DNA from: Armatimonadota bacterium
GTDB lineage: Bacteria > Armatimonadota > Fimbriimonadia > Fimbriimonadales > GBS-DC
DNA: 64,000 bases
Assembly (NCBI GenBank): GCA_023511915.1
Contig: JAIMAN010000006.1
Coordinates: forward strand, 3,284 to 67,283
Direction: 5' to 3'
Positions 1-61,765 of the stretch are shown here, piece after piece. Each line of letters opens with the position of its first letter. The stretch's first letter is position 1. The position numbers and the translations under genes are program-made. The notes beneath the pieces were generated by a model, which was not told the DNA's origin, searched no databases, and was given only the letters and a program-made list of their open reading frames with translations.

Positions 1-355
1 TGTTGCGCGGCGTGAAGAACTCGCGCCGCTGGTGATAATAACCGAGCGCGAAGAGTCCCTGCTCGGTCAGGCTAAGCGTGGTGGGGAACTGGTCGGGCAT
101 GGCGTCTTGCAGGTCGCGTTCGAGGGCAATTGCCAGCCCTTCGCGTTGTTTGCGCAGTTTGCTCAGGTGGGGCTGCGTCATGCGCAGCAGCACGCCGAAC
201 ACGCTGGCGGGTGCGGTGGACGCGCTGCCGTAGTAGCGGTCGGTCAGCGTGGCGTTGGGGTTACCAATCGCCAGGCTCTGGATGCGTTCAATCACGGCGA
301 GCAGTCGCCCGCACTTGTAGGCGGGGTGGCCCTGCGTTTCCGAATTGTGTGTCAT
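1..355 (-). CDS. cas11c: Cas11c-like small subunit (C-terminal module of Cas8c/Csd1) encoded as its own ORF; its 3' end runs off the left window edge
   Basis: Absent from the ORF track because it is open at the window edge. Hand translation from ATG 355-353 gives MTHNSETQGHPAYKCGRLLAVIERIQSLAIGNPNATLTDRYYGSASTAPASVFGVLLRMTQPHLSKLRKQREGLAIALERDLQDAMPDQFPTTLSLTEQGLFALGYYHQRREFF. The motifs PAYxxGRLxAVxExIQ, DRYYGSAS and EQGxFxLGYYHQ are ones I associate with the Csd1 C-terminus. GGAGGTGA (369-362) lies 6 nt upstream of the ATG. Confidence 0.7.
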   Translation of the reverse strand, partial: MTHNSETQGHPAYKCGRLLAVIERIQSLAIGNPNATLTDRYYGSASTAPASVFGVLLRMTQPHLSKLRKQREGLAIALERDLQDAMPDQFPTTLSLTEQGLFALGYYHQRREFFTPRN

Positions 356-368
356 TGGAATTCACCTC

Positions 369-1631
369 CTACAGTAGGTTGTGTGAGTATAGTACTGCTT
401 GGATGAGCCGTGCGCGGTTGTCTGTGACGCTGCGCTCGGCGCTATTGCGCCGGATGGCGAGCTGCAGCAGGGACATTGGCAGCGGGTTTCCCGTGAGCGT
501 GCAACGGATGAGCGTTTCGGGCACATGGGCGGGGATGTCGTCCGCCTTGAAGTAGAGGGCGCGCGCCAGTTGGAACACGCCGACGGGCGTATCGCCTGCG
601 TGCAGTTGCTGCCAGCGGAACCACTGGGCAAGGTTGCGCTGCACGGCGGGCAGGGTGGTCTCAAGGTAGCTGCGCACGACCACGCGCGCGCTGTTCGCCG
701 AGAGCGCAACGGCGTAGAACTCGTTCGCTTGGGGCTGCGCGGGGATTCCACCCCGTGCGACGGTCTCCAAGAGTTGCTTTACTTGAACGGGGTCGGGGGC
801 CTCCAGCATCTGCACGATGCTGAACTGGGTCGGCTTGCGCGTCCAGAAGCAGTAGACGAGTTTACCCACGCGCAGTGAGGTGTCTGGATTGCGCATAAGG
901 GCATCCAACGCCTTGAGCGCGCGTTCGGAGCAGTCCAGACAGATGGGCGACACAAAGGCTTCCGTCAACCGATAGGACTCGAAGGCGTCTGCATTTGCCG
1001 AGATGAGTGACATCCCCGAGCCTTGCCCGCCGGGAATGCCCTTGATGGGCAGGTAATGCCGTCGCACGACGGGCTTGACCTGCCCGCACACAAGGCACGG
1101 CATCGGGTCACCAACAATCTTATACGCGGTGGCTGCGTAATTTGCCCAGTACTGTTGCACATCGGGTAGGTCTATCACCCGCTGCCCGTTGACGCGGAAG
1201 GTGACAGTCTCGGCAGGGTCGTAGTCGTCGGGCACTTTGAGCCTCTTGAAGTGGCGCTGGTAGAACGCGTTAACTGCGCGCGTTTCGGGCAGGTTGAGCT
1301 GCTGATGGCAATCGGCGACCAGTTGCTTGAAGGCGTTGTGCTGTTCTTGGACACGCTCGTCTTTCTTGTTCTTCGCGGCACGCCCCAGCACATAGCCACC
1401 GTTGTCGCAAAACAGCAGGGGCATAATCGCGCTGGTGCGCAGGTTGCCGAGCGTTGGGACGGCGTGCAGGTTGCCGCGCTTCTGTTTGCCCGACGCCTGA
1501 CGCTGGTCTATCATCCCGCGCGGCGCGCCGTTGACGTCCAAATCGATCAGCCAGTCCACAGGCGCGTCCGCGTACAGACAGGGCGGCAGATTCACGCGCT
1601 GACTATACTCCACCAGTCGTTGCAGGAGCAT
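369..1631 (-). CDS. cas8c: Type I-C large subunit Cas8c/Csd1, N-terminal portion only (420 aa)
   Basis: Track ORF 369..1955 trimmed to ATG 1631 (MLLQRLVEYSQRVNLPP...), which overlaps the cas5c stop by 29 nt. It has Cys pairs (PCLVCG, PICLDC) and sits between cas5c and the cas11c-like ORF. The stop is TAG at 371-369. Confidence 0.75.
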   Translation of the reverse strand: MLLQRLVEYSQRVNLPPCLYADAPVDWLIDLDVNGAPRGMIDQRQASGKQKRGNLHAVPTLGNLRTSAIMPLLFCDNGGYVLGRAAKNKKDERVQEQHNAFKQLVADCHQQLNLPETRAVNAFYQRHFKRLKVPDDYDPAETVTFRVNGQRVIDLPDVQQYWANYAATAYKIVGDPMPCLVCGQVKPVVRRHYLPIKGIPGGQGSGMSLISANADAFESYRLTEAFVSPICLDCSERALKALDALMRNPDTSLRVGKLVYCFWTRKPTQFSIVQMLEAPDPVQVKQLLETVARGGIPAQPQANEFYAVALSANSARVVVRSYLETTLPAVQRNLAQWFRWQQLHAGDTPVGVFQLARALYFKADDIPAHVPETLIRCTLTGNPLPMSLLQLAIRRNSAERSVTDNRARLIQAVLYSHNLL

Positions 1632-2256
1632 GGTTGTTCCCTCCGTTGTAGATGTGTTGCGGGACATGCAGCACGCCGCGGCGCAGTTTGGCGTGGAAGA
1701 AGACGGGTTCAGCTTTGCCGTCGGGTTTGAAGCGGATTTCGCCGAGCATGAGCCCCAAGTCGTCGCTCCAGTTGATGGCGCGGTCGTACTTGTTGGACGG
1801 GGCGAAGTAGGCGGCAAACTCGCGACAGCCCAAGTACGGCTGGTGGTAGCACTGCCCGCGCTCGACGCGCCGTTGGAACTGGTCACGATAGGCGGCGATG
1901 TCCTTATCCGCGTGCGGTTGCAGCACGATGTCGGCGACGATGAGGTACGCCACATCGCGCAGGGCGAGCGTGTGGCGCTGCGTGCGCGACTCGTCGGCGA
2001 AAAATGGTTGCGCCCCGCGCACAGGCACGCGCCTGTCCACCTCGTTGCGCAGCAGGGAGATATGGCGCAGCGGCTTCAGCACATGAATCTCGCGTATGCG
2101 CCACTGGAACTCGGGCTTCCAGAAGATGGCTTCCAGCACCCCGCGCGCCGCCGACGGCGTCATCACAGGGTACGACACGCGCTCGACCTTCATCTCGGGG
2201 CGTGTGAAACAGGCATACGGACCCCAGACCTTTACACGGAGCGGTTCATGATACAT
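1603..2256 (-). CDS. cas5c: Type I-C Cas5c (Cas5d) pre-crRNA endoribonuclease
   Basis: MYHEPLRVKVWGPYACFTRPEMKVERVSYPVMTPSAARGVLEAIFWKPEF is the canonical Cas5d N-terminus. Start taken at ATG 2256, with GGAGGA 8 nt upstream, rather than the track start at 2277. Confidence 0.85.
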   Translation of the reverse strand: MYHEPLRVKVWGPYACFTRPEMKVERVSYPVMTPSAARGVLEAIFWKPEFQWRIREIHVLKPLRHISLLRNEVDRRVPVRGAQPFFADESRTQRHTLALRDVAYLIVADIVLQPHADKDIAAYRDQFQRRVERGQCYHQPYLGCREFAAYFAPSNKYDRAINWSDDLGLMLGEIRFKPDGKAEPVFFHAKLRRGVLHVPQHIYNGGNNHAPATTGGV

Positions 2257-28009: not shown

Positions 28010-30199
28010 ATGCAGAATCGATGGCTGATACTGGGCTTGAGTGTTCTTGTCTCGGCGATGTTATGGGTTGCAGGGCGCGCCCAAGCGGTGATTACCTACC
28101 AGGGCTACCTGCGCATGGGCGGCGCGCCTGCCAACGGAAACTACGACTTCATCTTCACCCTGTACGACGACCCGATGGCGGGCAACCAAGTCGGCGTCCA
28201 AGTCAGAATCAACAACAAGCTCGTCAGAAACGGGTTGTATACTGTGGAACTGGACTTCGGTCCTCACAATGTTATCTGGAACGCCCTGCCCGCACGCAAT
28301 CGTTGGCTGGAGATTCAGGTGCGCCCAGCGGGGGGCGGGAACTTCATGCGACTTGCCCCGCGCGTGCGCATCCACGCCGCGCCCTATGCGTGGGCAGCGT
28401 TTCCTGTGGGACCCGCCGCTGGCGACCTGGCGGGCAACTATCCGAACCCGTTGGTGGTCGGTTTTCGGGGATTGCCGCTGGCGGTGTTCAACGCGGCGAA
28501 CCCGCCGAATGTCGGTGACTTTTTGTTCTGGAATGGCAACTTCTGGAGACCCGCAGGCGGCGCAGGCGGTGCAGGACCCGTGAACGGCGCCCTCTTGTTC
28601 TGGAACGCTGGCATACTCAGGTGGCAGCCGATGGCGGTTCCGCCTGCGGTCGGCAATGTGCCCATTTGGAACGGCAACGCTTGGGCGCCTGGCGTGATTC
28701 CGCCTGGAGGACCCGCGGGCGGCGACCTATTCGGCAACTACCCGAACCCGATGGTCGCAGGGCTGCGCGGGCGCCCCGTCTCGCCGAATCTTCCCCAGAC
28801 AGGACAAGTGCTGAAGTGGGATGGCATGATGTGGACGCCCGCGAACGATCTGACCGATGGCAACTTCACGCTGCCGTTCACGGGCGGCGCAGCCGTACAA
28901 AACGGCGCGACCTTCGCCATCGCCAACCCCGCCTCGACGGGTCAAGCGGTTGCGATTTCGGGCGCGTCTGCCAGCACGAGCGGCGCGGGCATTCTCGGCG
29001 AGGCGACCGCCACGACAGGCGAGGCGTATGGCGTGATTGGACGCAGCGCGAGCGAGAGCGGACGCGGCGTGTTCGGCGAGGCGACGGCATCGTCGGGCAA
29101 CACCTATGGGATGTACGGGCGCGCCAGCAGCACCAGCGGCGTCGGCGTGCTTGGCGAAGCCACCGCGACTTCGGGCGACACGCGCGGTATACTGGGGCGC
29201 AGTAGCAGCACCAGCGGCGTCGGCGTGCTTGGCGAAGCCACCGCGACTTCGGGCGACACGCGCGGTATACTGGGACGCAGTAGCAGCACCAGCGGCGTCG
29301 GCGTGCTTGGCGAGGCGACCGCCACGACGGGCAACACCTACGGCATAGCGGGACGCGCCAGTAGCACCAGCGGCGCGGGCGTGTTCGGCGAGGCGACCGC
29401 CACGACGGGCAACACCTACGGCATAGTGGGACGCGCCAGTAGCACCAGCGGCGTGGGCGTGCTTGGCGAGGCGACCGCCACGACGGGCAACACCTATGGT
29501 GGTCTGTTCCAGAACCCCTCCAGCAGTGGCGCAGGCGTGTACGGCTACGCGCAGGCGACCACAGGCACGAACTACGGCGTGGTTGGGCGTTCCGAAAGCC
29601 CTTCGGGACGCGGCGTGGTCGGCGTCGCCGAAGCCTCCACTGGCACGAACTACGGCGTGCTGGGACGCACCAACAGCAGCGCGAACGGCTGGGGCGTGTA
29701 TGCAGGCGGACGCTTGGGCGCGTCGGGCACCAAGTCGTTCCAGATTGACCACCCGCTCCGCCCAGAGACCCACTTCCTGAACCACTTCTGCATCGAGGCG
29801 CCCGAGCCGTACAACCTCTATCGCGGCACGGTGACGCTCGATGCCCAAGGCGAGGCGTGGGTGCAACTGCCCGACTACTTCGAGGCGATTAACCGCGACG
29901 CTTCGTATCACCTGACCCCTATCGGCGCGGCGATGCCCAACCTGCATGTGGCGGTGGAGATTCAGGGCAACCGCTTCAAAATCGCGGGCGGCGCGCCCTT
30001 CAAAAAGGTCTCGTGGGAAGTGAAAGCCGTTCGCAACGATCCGTGGGTGCAACAGTACGGCTACCAGACCGAGCAAGAGAAGCCGAAAGAGTATCAGGGC
30101 TTGTACCTGCACCCCGAACTGTACGGGCAACCGAAGGAGCGCGGCGTCTTCTATATGCTTCGTACCGAGCCTGCCTACCAACTGCCTGCCGAACCCTGA
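28010..30199 (+). CDS. Secreted tail-fibre-like repeat protein
   Basis: Signal peptide MQNRWLILGLSVLVSAMLWVAGRAQA, then ITYQGYLRMGGAPANGNYDFIFTLYDD (a tail-fibre-like N-domain), about ten 26-aa repeats, and a C-terminal KSFQIDHPLRPETHFLNHFCIEAPE... domain. Confidence 0.6.
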   Translation: MQNRWLILGLSVLVSAMLWVAGRAQAVITYQGYLRMGGAPANGNYDFIFTLYDDPMAGNQVGVQVRINNKLVRNGLYTVELDFGPHNVIWNALPARNRWLEIQVRPAGGGNFMRLAPRVRIHAAPYAWAAFPVGPAAGDLAGNYPNPLVVGFRGLPLAVFNAANPPNVGDFLFWNGNFWRPAGGAGGAGPVNGALLFWNAGILRWQPMAVPPAVGNVPIWNGNAWAPGVIPPGGPAGGDLFGNYPNPMVAGLRGRPVSPNLPQTGQVLKWDGMMWTPANDLTDGNFTLPFTGGAAVQNGATFAIANPASTGQAVAISGASASTSGAGILGEATATTGEAYGVIGRSASESGRGVFGEATASSGNTYGMYGRASSTSGVGVLGEATATSGDTRGILGRSSSTSGVGVLGEATATSGDTRGILGRSSSTSGVGVLGEATATTGNTYGIAGRASSTSGAGVFGEATATTGNTYGIVGRASSTSGVGVLGEATATTGNTYGGLFQNPSSSGAGVYGYAQATTGTNYGVVGRSESPSGRGVVGVAEASTGTNYGVLGRTNSSANGWGVYAGGRLGASGTKSFQIDHPLRPETHFLNHFCIEAPEPYNLYRGTVTLDAQGEAWVQLPDYFEAINRDASYHLTPIGAAMPNLHVAVEIQGNRFKIAGGAPFKKVSWEVKAVRNDPWVQQYGYQTEQEKPKEYQGLYLHPELYGQPKERGVFYMLRTEPAYQLPAEP
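28955..29710 (+). repeat. In-frame tandem repeats of 78 nt / 26 aa (two 13-aa half-units), about 10 copies
   Basis: The unit is GEATATxGxTYGIxGRASSTSGVGVL. Copies at 29129-29206 and 29207-29284 are 77/78 identical. Confidence 0.9.
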
Positions 30200-54673: not shown

Positions 54674-55435
54674 ATGGCTATGCCGATTATCGAGACCGTA
54701 GAGCAGCTGGCGGACTTTCTGGAGCAGAACGAGGAATGGCGGCGCAGGATATACAGCATCCTCGTGCCGCGTGAATTAGCGCGCCTACCTGCGGAGTTCG
54801 ACGAGTTTCGCGCGGAGACGCGCCGTGAGTTTGACTCCGTGCGTGCGGAAATGCGCGAAGGCTTTGAGCAAATCCGTGCAGAGATACGCGCGAGCGAGGA
54901 ACAACTCCGTGCAGAGATACGCGCGGGTGATGAGCAAATCCGTGCAGAGATGCGGGAGAATAGCAAGCGAGTGGAACAGAAAATTCAAAAGAACACTGAC
55001 GCCATCGCCGAACTCAAGGGAATTTCGCTGGAGCAGTATTACCGCAACAAGGCGCGTGCGCTGTTTGGCAGGTACTTCCGTGATGTCAGGGTCATCGACT
55101 GGATAGACTTGGAGGAACCATTGGAAGCAGTTGCGCCGCTGACCGAGAGAGAGCGTGAGGAACTGAGCGTTGTTGACCTGCTGGCGCGCGGTTGGCGCAA
55201 GACCGACGGTCAGGAAGTTGTGTTGGTGATTGAGGTTTCGTGGGTGATTGTGCGGAACGATGTGGAGCGCGCCGTGCAACGGGCGAAGATACTGTCGCAG
55301 CGTGGTGTTGTGGCAACTCCCGTTGTTGCAGGGCGCGAGATCGACGACGAGGCGCGCGAGGCGGCGCGCACAGCAAGATGCGCGCTCGTGATGGACGGAC
55401 GCTTCGAGCTTAACCAACCCCTGCGGGGAGCATAG
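54674..55435 (+). CDS. Hypothetical protein: N-terminal 11-residue-repeat coiled coil plus C-terminal PD-(D/E)xK-like domain
   Basis: Has three 33-nt repeats at 54866-54964 (EQIRAEIRASE/EQLRAEIRAGD/EQIRAEMRENS). VVLVIEVSW is a possible nuclease E-x-S/K motif. A TATAAT box lies at 54664-54669. Confidence 0.45.
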   Translation: MAMPIIETVEQLADFLEQNEEWRRRIYSILVPRELARLPAEFDEFRAETRREFDSVRAEMREGFEQIRAEIRASEEQLRAEIRAGDEQIRAEMRENSKRVEQKIQKNTDAIAELKGISLEQYYRNKARALFGRYFRDVRVIDWIDLEEPLEAVAPLTEREREELSVVDLLARGWRKTDGQEVVLVIEVSWVIVRNDVERAVQRAKILSQRGVVATPVVAGREIDDEAREAARTARCALVMDGRFELNQPLRGA

Positions 55436-59297: not shown

Positions 59298-59388
59298 TGG
59301 CGGAGGGGGAGGGATTCGAACCCCCGTCCCACACGAGGTGGGATGCGGTTTTCAAGACCGCCGCCTTCAGCCACTCGGCCACCCCTCC
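59298..59388 (-). tRNA. tRNA-Ser (anticodon UGA), CCA encoded
   Basis: Minus strand reads GGAGGGGTGGCCGAGTGGCTGAAGGCGGCGGTCTTGAAAACCGCATCCCACCTCGTGTGGGACGGGGGTTCGAATCCCTCCCCCTCCGCCA. It has a 7-bp acceptor stem, anticodon loop CTTGAAA, a long variable arm and T-loop TTCGAAT. A TATAAT box at 59406-59401 lies 12 nt upstream. Confidence 0.9.
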
Positions 59389-61291: not shown

Positions 61292-61618
61292 ATGCAGAAG
61301 GGTGTGGATCCGATAGGGATAGGCGTGATTGCGCTGGGCGTGGTGATGCTCATCGTGCTGGTGGTGATTAGCAACAATCAGATGCCGCAGCCGTTGCCCG
61401 CGCCGCAGACGCCCGATTTGAACGGCTTGGCGCGCAAGATCGAAGACCCGCTGTCGGCGGCGGTCGGCGCAGCGGGTATGGGCGGCGCGCCGATGATGGG
61501 CGGACCGACAGGCGGCTTTGGGGCTGCGCCGCCGCCCACCGCGCCGATGGGCGGACCCGCCGCGCCCGCAGGCGGCGGCATGGGCGGACGACGCGGCGAA
61601 ATGCCCGAAGATTACTGA
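61292..61618 (+). CDS. Small membrane protein with Gly/Pro/Met-rich tail (hypothetical)
   Basis: One TM helix (IGIGVIALGVVMLIVLVVI). GGAGG SD after a TACAAT box at 61267-61272. Confidence 0.45.
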   Translation: MQKGVDPIGIGVIALGVVMLIVLVVISNNQMPQPLPAPQTPDLNGLARKIEDPLSAAVGAAGMGGAPMMGGPTGGFGAAPPPTAPMGGPAAPAGGGMGGRRGEMPEDY

Positions 61619-61684
61619 AAACGCTCGGAACACAGGCAGAGATGCGCCGTCTATAGACTCTGCAAGGGTCGTCCTATGCATCTG

Positions 61685-61720
61685 GTGCACCTGCTATCCA
61701 AGGCGGGTGAGGATTGAAAC
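61685..61720 (+). CRISPR. Solitary CRISPR-repeat-like sequence GTGCACCTGCTATCCAAGGCGGGTGAGGATTGAAAC
   Basis: A 7-bp stem (CACCTGC/GCGGGTG) is followed by AGGATTGAAAC. Type I-C repeats typically end ...GTGGATTGAAAC, which is the 11-nt 5' handle left by Cas5c. There is only one copy and no array in this window. Confidence 0.35.
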
Positions 61721-61740
61721 CAGAGAGCATCTCTGCCAGA

Positions 61741-61765
61741 GGCTCGCATGCCGAGCCTTTTTTTT
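61741..61765 (+). terminator. Rho-independent terminator
   Basis: GGCTCG-CATGC-CGAGCC followed by TTTTTTTT. Confidence 0.85.

Follow-up and report, generated by a model that had tools for sequence, protein, structure and literature searches.

A cas-distal solitary type I-C CRISPR repeat in a conserved 3' untranslated RNA of Fimbriimonadales is a probable Cas5c substrate

Regulatory roles have been established for a number of ectopic repeats derived from CRISPR (clusters of regularly interspaced short palindromic repeats), among them CreA, CreR, CRISPR RNA (crRNA)-like RNAs, scaRNA, s479 and the RNA anti-CRISPRs (Racrs). Type I-C solitary repeat units (SRUs) with a single repeat, among them one that represses the Nezha promoter in Neisseria, are reported to give rise to crRNA-like RNAs that depend on Cascade, measure 48-50 nt, bear an 11-nt handle and end in a 3' hairpin (10.1101/2024.12.27.630466). 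In Haloferax volcanii the host regulatory small RNA (sRNA) s479 is matured by Cas6 and is bound and stabilized by Cascade (PMC8155600). Repeat-like sequences were reported by Shmakov et al. to be enriched in cas loci and depleted in other intergenic regions (PMC10120712). The element described here falls into the latter, depleted category. It is a single type I-C repeat in a 64-kb stretch (65% GC, hereafter "the window") of a Fimbriimonadales (Armatimonadota) chromosome, where it lies ~59.4 kb from cas5c with roughly 50 unrelated genes in between. The described ectopic repeats sit within or beside cas loci or on mobile elements; this one is a cas-distal SRU in a pre-existing, conserved RNA of the 3' untranslated region (3'UTR) of a small membrane-protein gene, and it does not comply with the usage that places SRUs within or adjacent to a CRISPR-cas locus. 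Our analysis somewhat favours, with a probability of about 0.55, the reading that this unit is cut by the CRISPR-associated (Cas) protein Cas5c at 61709/61710 and would in this way tie a host RNA to the CRISPR machinery.

From the TGA that ends the small gene (61616-61618) to the ATG of an Uma2 gene (61798) there is a gap of 179 nt. It contains the 36-mer GTGCACCTGCTATCCAAGGCGGGTGAGGATTGAAAC at 61685-61720, which an initial annotation of the window had interpreted as a type I-C-like CRISPR repeat. The gap, the 36-mer, its stem and handle, the 20 nt and the terminator that follow, the 11-bp pairing between the flanks, and cas5c and cas8c (the latter two by Pfam) were all recovered at the positions that the annotation had assigned (Table 1). 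Extended by one nucleotide, the 37-mer 61684-61720 was aligned to all 37 positions of the Rfam model CRISPR-DR9 (RF01322) with 33.4 bits (E-value 6e-6 locally and 0.001 for the whole window) and was the sole such match in the window. The array of the genome itself lies outside of the window and the array repeats were compared in relatives, which stand in for the source genome (the best match in the genome collection is 76% identical). All type I-C loci with a Cas5c nearest to that of the window use 37-nt repeats of the form GTTGCACCCG...CGGGTGAGGATTGAAAC. In three Fimbriimonadales loci, L128 (Cas5c 84% identical) and L129 and L130 (80%), the repeat reads GTTGCACCCGCCCCCA[C/A]GGGCGGGTGAGGATTGAAAC, and the closest relative retrieved, the locus L137 on a 3.07-Mb contig, carries an array with 16 copies of the L128-type repeat. 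L137 was reached through the members of a Cas5c cluster (the Cas5c of the window is 91% identical to P0043, the representative of the 90%-identity cluster containing the L137 Cas5c) and is syntenic with the window, sharing DUF444, a HEPN/nucleotidyltransferase pair, isocitrate lyase, malate synthase, cas5c (217 aa), cas8c (420 aa) and cas11c (142 aa).

The solitary repeat is 31/37 identical to the array repeats of these four loci, including the syntenic relative, with identical runs of 18 and 9 contiguous bases, which rules out a chance resemblance to a CRISPR repeat. The argument of the initial annotation against chance, built on the 10-mer GGATTGAAAC, holds as well, as this sequence has a single exact copy in the window and its one-mismatch matches stay at chance level. 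No second copy of the element, the repeat or a repeat-like sequence was found in the window. Of the six differences from the array repeat, one (position 2) is in the 5' overhang and five (positions 12, 13, 14, 16 and 18) are in the apical stem or loop. Solitary and array repeats agree throughout the lower 7 bp of the stem and throughout the 11-nt handle. The stem CACCTGC/GCGGGTG has 7 bp, one of them a U.G pair; counting T61695.G61702 as well brings it to 8 bp. Judged by these comparisons, the lineage's type I-C repeat is genuinely present at 61684-61720.

Mutagenesis has mapped the recognition by Cas5c to the stem base and the 3' overhang of the repeat, the loop and the 5' overhang being dispensable (PMC8524198). 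All six differences (6/6) from the array repeat fall into the parts that Cas5c can dispense with. For six of six differences within ~12 of the 37 positions our own combinatorics gives p ~4e-4, a value to be read with the caveat that the natural divergence of repeats is also concentrated in those parts. Measured against the determinants of the same study (PMC8524198), the element has the sequence of a Cas5c substrate, namely a cognate stem base and an 11-nt handle that is mostly unpaired in the fold, where only its last two bases (61719-61720) pair in an enclosing stem. The cleavage site proposed in the initial annotation, between G61709 and A61710 at the base of the repeat stem, is the correct predicted position. 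The host RNA has probably become a Cas5c substrate.

This host RNA, carried by a subclade of Fimbriimonadales, is older than the repeat within it. For the whole region of 157 nt the folding energy is -64 kcal/mol, with z-scores of -3.4 for the plus strand and -1.9 for the minus strand. The RNA ends with an intrinsic terminator formed by a GC-rich hairpin and a U-run on the transcribed strand. Transcription from the minus strand was rejected on the grounds of the weaker fold (z -1.9) and the lack of a T-run after the terminator on that strand. Directly after the repeat stand the 20 nt CAGAGAGCATCTCTGCCAGA, followed by the terminator; the initial annotation had called this segment spacer-like and had seen a long hairpin, closed by 11 bp, around the repeat. 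Indeed, GGCAGAGATGC and GCATCTCTGCC form a perfect 11-bp pairing in the window (the closing stem P1). Orthologous loci reached through the small protein (L001; L002, in a complete genome; L005/L006; and L132, which is more distant) have the same RNA right after the stop codon and lack the repeat. These repeat-less orthologues retain the P1 arms, an invariant CAAGGGTCGTCC motif and the terminator. Since relatives without a repeat have the same flanks, the "spacer" and the "long hairpin" are ancestral parts of the host RNA: the 20 nt belong to the old 3'UTR RNA, and of the hairpin proposal the 11-bp stem and the terminator stand, while the idea that the structure was built around the repeat does not.

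A metagenome scan with the conserved 3' arm retrieved 39 loci, all of them after the same small gene. The arm that varies between these loci is delimited by GGGTCGTCC and CAGAGAGC and exists in four forms. Form A, with a short loop, was found in 7/39 loci; its GCTCTCAAGACACA makes a small hairpin with GAGAGC. Form B, which contains the repeat, occurs in 23/39 loci, form C with another hairpin (GCGCTT...AAGCGC) in 8/39, and form D with yet another long hairpin in 1/39. Ten further loci, obtained via exact protein match and therefore free of any DNA-pattern bias, comprised eight of form B, one of form C and one of form A. Form B is thus a conserved standalone repeat, present on about 30 contigs from many samples. 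All forms fold to one architecture with z-scores from -4 to -7; the RNA consists of the closing stem P1, a multiloop and a distal arm, the content of which varies. In a tree built from ~1.4 kb of upstream sequence every deep branch carries form A or D. P1 is paired in 97% of the cells of alignment A2 and its outer 7 bp are invariant; compensatory changes in P1 were absent from A2, which is a weak test, as the search pattern had fixed the 3' arm for L009-L047. The form-B locus L143 (~2430-2450), the only 3'-arm variant among loci not selected by a DNA pattern, has a changed P1 3' arm (CGTCTCTGCC / CAGAGACGTCTCTGCC) that by inspection can still form 10 bp with the 5' arm, which is unchanged. One pair of the stem enclosing the repeat (alignment columns 71/126) is U-A in form B and C-G in form C.

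The conservation of the repeat was assessed in 20 complete form-B contigs, and in 21 form-B contigs for third codon positions. Only 4/37 sites of the repeat are segregating (nucleotide diversity, pi, 0.011), as opposed to 53/107 third codon positions of the adjacent gene (pi 0.15; Fisher p = 2.7e-5). The 9-nt junction upstream of the repeat has a pi of 0.066 and the 5-nt terminator loop, ~30 nt downstream of the repeat, a pi of 0.13. The handle has one variable site among its 11 nt, in one lineage, and is identical in 19/20 form-B contigs and in 8/8 further form-B loci. The substitution in this lineage (L040 type, GGATT->GGATC, T->C) results in GGAUCGAAAC, a variant also present in the natural array L125. 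The other changes in the repeat are a C->U in the stem of the window's copy, by which a G.U pair is kept, and loop changes in the L040 type, L142 and L147. Nine versions of the linker that follows the repeat were seen, 0-13 nt in length, seven among the 20 contigs and two more in the protein-ascertained loci (none, AC, AAAC, AAACCA, AGACAAAC, AAGATACAC, AAGACACAC, AAACAAGACACAC and AAACCAGACACAC), the longest retaining the form-A loop AAGACACAC. Among these nine versions, no deletion crosses the last base of the repeat. The low diversity is confined to these 37 nt and returns to normal within a few nucleotides on either side. A recent sweep therefore cannot account for it, and purifying selection acting on the repeat itself can.

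The simplest history is that a fragment with one copy of the lineage's own repeat was captured once, in one crown lineage, and that losses, remodelling or recombinational exchange of alleles came afterwards. Form C (L025, L026, L029, L031, L038, L043-L045 and L145) has in common with form B only the junction (CATCTGG; CAAGCATCTGG[T/C]GC) and a GGTGAG motif; the handle is lost and a new GCGCTT/AAGCGC hairpin is present. From its sequence, form C looks like a remodelled derivative of the repeat, at two places on the tree. In form D, carried by the deepest-branching relative (L013 5834-6001(-)), an 8-bp hairpin is followed by GAGGGTTGCAGC, 9/12 identical to GAGGATTGAAAC; this may reflect either another repeat, now decayed, that was captured in the same arm or a chance similarity. 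No exact match of the form-D hairpin sequence was found in a viral contig collection.

Table 1. Features of the solitary repeat, its host RNA and the cas genes in the window.
Feature	Position	Strand	Description and basis
Captured segment, 45 nt	61676..61720	+	ATGCATCTG + repeat; replaces 14-nt GCTCTCAAGACACA of form A (L001, L002, L005, L132; alignment A2)
Solitary type I-C CRISPR repeat (psiR), 37 nt	61684..61720	+	CRISPR-DR9 match; array-repeat identity; pi 0.011 among form-B contigs
Repeat hairpin	61688..61709	+	Stem 61688-61695 / 61702-61709, 8 pairs including two G.U; loop 61696-61701; fold
11-nt 5'-handle	61710..61720	+	AGGATTGAAAC; same sequence as array repeats
Structured, terminator-ended RNA (3'UTR or 3'UTR-derived sRNA)	61619..61765	+	Variable arm, form B in the window; fold, orthologous loci
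P1 closing stem, 5' arm	61635..61645	+	GGCAGAGATGC; pairs with 61727-61737
Ancestral 3' arm	61721..61737	+	CAGAGA + P1 3' arm GCATCTCTGCC (61727-61737); present in relatives without the repeat
6-bp stem enclosing the repeat hairpin	61681..61686 (5' strand)	+	TCTGGT / ACCAGA (61719-61724); fold
Intrinsic terminator	61738..61765 (hairpin 61738-61760)	+	9-bp stem, 5-nt loop, T8; stem kept in all forms, loop variable
Small membrane-protein gene, 108 aa	61292..61618	+	N-terminal transmembrane helix; Pro/Gly/Met-rich tail ending RRGEMPEDY
cas5c	1603..2256	-	Pfam Cas_Cas5d, E 1.6e-33; endoribonuclease expected to recognise the repeat
cas8c large-subunit open reading frame, 420 aa	369..1631	-	Pfam E 3.9e-77; Csd1 profile positions 1-434
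Separate cas11c-like open reading frame	2..355	-	Csd1 profile positions 448-559; runs off the window edge

The protein encoded upstream of the RNA has 42 homologues, all of them in Fimbriimonadales/Armatimonadota, and matched no Pfam family. Its gene shows a coding signature, with pi of 0.034/0.017/0.15 at codon positions 1/2/3 in the 21 form-B contigs. The context is core chromosomal and syntenic across strains, comprising a ChaN-like gene, tRNA-Ser and hypoxanthine phosphoribosyltransferase, with EF-Tu nearby in relatives. The tRNA-Ser gene (anticodon tga, 59298-59388(-)) is overlapped by a long spurious open reading frame (ORF) on the plus strand. Tandem repeats are present at 28959-29545 (period 78 nt, also read as 156/234) and 54865-54966 (33 nt) and probably represent repeat-containing coding regions. 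Moreover, the search of Rfam for a known unrelated RNA family, suggested along with the initial annotation, returned no family for the RNA core, form C or form D; the repeat alone gave a match.

The type I-C locus of this lineage (L137 10001-16589; L128 10001-17416; left edge of the window) has the order cas5c-cas8c-cas11c-cas7-array-cas3, with cas3 downstream of the array. No cas1, cas2 or cas4 was found within 10 kb of it in L137 and L128; in L129/L130, cas4-cas1-cas2 precede the array. The cas8c gene is split, the 420-aa ORF ending at TAG 369-371 and a separate ORF for the Cas11c part following 13 nt on, past AGGAGGTGA. The same 420 + 142 aa split of cas8c/cas11c is present in L137 and L138 (the L130 cas8c is fused, 519 aa), and as it is common to the window, L137 and L138, it is a stable arrangement and not a pseudogene. 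The cas locus adjoins aceB/aceA in the window and L137 and the his operon in L128-L130; these differing neighbours imply that the locus has moved.

Solitary repeats of this family were also seen elsewhere. In L130 (9386-9422(+)), and identically in L129, the sequence GTTGCACCCGCCCTCAAGGGCGGGTAAGGATTGAAAC, 35/37 identical to the array repeat, lies in the gap between cas1 and cas2. It ends 16 nt before the cas2 ATG, so that the ribosome-binding site of cas2 sits at the "spacer" position, and it is preceded by a leader-like sequence with TTGACA, as found before the L128 and L137 arrays. This repeat may mark a control of cas2 by Cas5c/Cascade. Another one, GTTGCACCCGCCTCTAGGGGCGGGTGAGGATTGAAAC, is the single Fimbriimonadales-family repeat of a phage-like contig (L136 4470-4506(+), IMGVR_UViG_3300031520_000005) that encodes a large terminase (723-2321) and a DnaB only 43% identical to a host DnaB. 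It abuts the 3' end of dnaB in antisense orientation and is a candidate for an RNA anti-CRISPR or a viral crRNA-like RNA.

If Cas5c does act on the repeat, the following course of events would be expected. The RNA would be transcribed together with the upstream small gene, which is probable because the sole terminator is that at 61738-61765, and would end there. Cas5c, encoded ~59 kb away, would then bind the repeat and cut between G61709 and A61710, leaving an mRNA that ends in the repeat hairpin and releasing an RNA of ~45-60 nt which begins with AGGAUUGAAAC and extends through the ancestral 3' arm into the terminator hairpin. Such a crRNA-like product might nucleate a Cascade complex of Cas5c, Cas7, Cas8c and Cas11c. 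The output would be either a Cascade with a fixed, host-derived "guide" or an abundant RNA acting as a buffer for free Cas5c and Cascade. The RNA may serve as such a buffer or as a decoy, or Cas5c may shape the 3'UTR or sRNA.

Several observations weigh against this interpretation. Transcription, cleavage and Cascade loading of the RNA are steps that we infer from the sequence. The score of the solitary repeat stays below the CRISPR-DR9 gathering score of 45, against 48.8 bits for the true array repeats of the clade; the shortfall is due to its degenerate apex, with a shortened apical stem and a larger loop. The would-be guide is ancestral sequence, part of which is tied up by pairing in the 11-bp P1 stem and in the hairpin of the terminator, and the nucleotides right after the handle, which would constitute the seed, vary between strains (nine tail variants, 0-13 nt). 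Neither the window nor ~400 kb of related loci contained a TTC-flanked partial match beyond chance. Form B and type I-C cas genes were seen together in one genome only, that of the window. In the tree, forms B and C and one A are interspersed in the crown clade. Furthermore, the arm holds an unrelated hairpin (form C, perhaps D) or nothing (form A) in close relatives. The RNA can therefore do without the repeat, which has undergone loss or remodelling on several occasions.

The last two points are also what a mere structural passenger would predict, i.e., a repeat fragment that landed by illegitimate recombination in a hairpin-tolerant arm and has been kept as a stabilizing stem-loop with no contact to Cas proteins. 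In strains with forms C and D the site holds an unrelated hairpin and in those with form A just a short loop, all of which fold equally well, and the interspersed forms suggest that gain, loss or replacement is frequent; the failure to find a guide target in the window and in ~400 kb of related loci fits this view too. We nevertheless think this reading, the main rival, somewhat unlikely. A passenger gives no account of why the handle, which is largely unpaired, is as conserved as the stem (1/11 sites varies, in one lineage only), why repeated tail deletions stop exactly at the last base of the repeat, and why all differences from the array repeat avoid the determinants of Cas5c.

The initial annotation had suggested a regulator of the CreA/CreR type. 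In this reading the processed RNA would guide Cascade by partial complementarity at a TTC protospacer-adjacent motif (PAM) and repress a promoter of cas, toxin or other defence genes. The architecture does correspond to that of the Nezha repressor, a crRNA-like RNA from a type I-C unit with a single repeat; targets could lie beyond the 64-kb window, and low-complementarity targets are computationally hard to find (PMC10120712). We searched with the nine tail variants, requiring a TTC/TTT PAM and a seed match of at least 8-9 of 10, and obtained no TTC-flanked seed match beyond chance upstream of cas5c (2257-2440), elsewhere in the window, or in L137 and other cas loci of the clade. The few matches at chance level lie in coding regions (cas1 of L129-L131, a DUF444 gene). 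This result, a seed register that shifts by 0-13 nt from strain to strain, a guide sequence older than the repeat, and the distance of ~59 kb from the cas genes, compared with known units within or next to cas loci, make such a guide function improbable. Hardly credible is the remaining proposal, a one-repeat mini-array or the last relic of a decayed array. A single, apically degenerate repeat followed by a segment of about spacer length would agree with it. Both flanks, however, are conserved host RNA that is repeat-less in deep-branching relatives, the upstream flank lies 65 nt from the protein stop codon and pairs with the downstream flank, no second repeat-like sequence occurs in the window, and the "spacer", i.e., the conserved 3' arm, is absent from viral contigs. 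The orthologous loci therefore refute a CRISPR array, mini or decayed: one repeat was inserted in a pre-existing RNA whose repeat-less forms occupy all deep branches.

Cleavage by Cas5c thus remains the reading that we favour, and it may be taken one step further. The syntenic locus has no cas1, cas2 or cas4 and cas11c is a separate gene; the system might be partly domesticated, Cas5c maturing a host sRNA from the 3'UTR of the membrane-protein gene and Cascade binding this sRNA; we put this forward as a tentative and rather doubtful extension. If it were true, a CRISPR effector would be part of housekeeping RNA metabolism, or of a sensor of Cascade levels, far from the cas locus, and forms B (capture), D (a possible second capture) and C (remodelling) would record the gain and loss of the coupling as strains gain and lose CRISPR. 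More generally, if the proposed cleavage is true, CRISPR ribonucleases could be recruited to ordinary host transcripts. The natural polymorphism among strains, in which forms A, B and C share nearly the same background, supplies controls for tests of what the coupling does, and the locus is a worked example of how such a unit can originate, by capture of a repeat in a tolerant arm of an existing structured RNA.

Among the described systems, the type I-C SRU of Neisseria is similar in having one repeat, the 11-nt handle of which is intact, then a short segment (~20-33 nt) and, where a second repeat would stand, a 3' hairpin, and in the length of its product, 48-50 nt there and a predicted ~45-60 nt here, depending on the tail. 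It differs in its position within the cas operon (herA-cas5c) and in its 16-bp TTC-flanked match to a nearby promoter (10.1101/2024.12.27.630466), whereas the element of Fimbriimonadales lies ~59 kb from cas in the 3'UTR of an unrelated gene, with a "guide" older than the repeat, a variable seed register and no target found. With CreA/CreR and mini-arrays it shares an ectopic, partly degenerate repeat in which the parts recognized by Cas proteins are kept and which is conserved among related strains (PMC10120712; PMC9458426; 10.1101/2023.03.10.532045), but those usually have two repeat-like sequences around a pseudo-spacer, are situated inside or next to cas loci and act on the promoters of cas or toxin genes. 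In common with Racrs and viral SRUs (PMC10651486) it has a lone repeat that lacks a real spacer and could pull Cas subunits into complexes that are not productive; Racrs, however, are carried by phages or plasmids, and the present element is located in the core chromosome and inherited with a host gene, so it is not a Racr. The sRNA s479 of H. volcanii resembles it in that a host RNA precursor contains an almost complete CRISPR repeat, s479 having a crRNA-type 5' handle. That system is of type I-B, uses Cas6, belongs to an archaeon and lies between a CRISPR array and the cas cluster, while the element described here is of type I-C, with a predicted processing by Cas5c, and resides in a bacterium, in a cas-distal 3'UTR that is polymorphic among strains.

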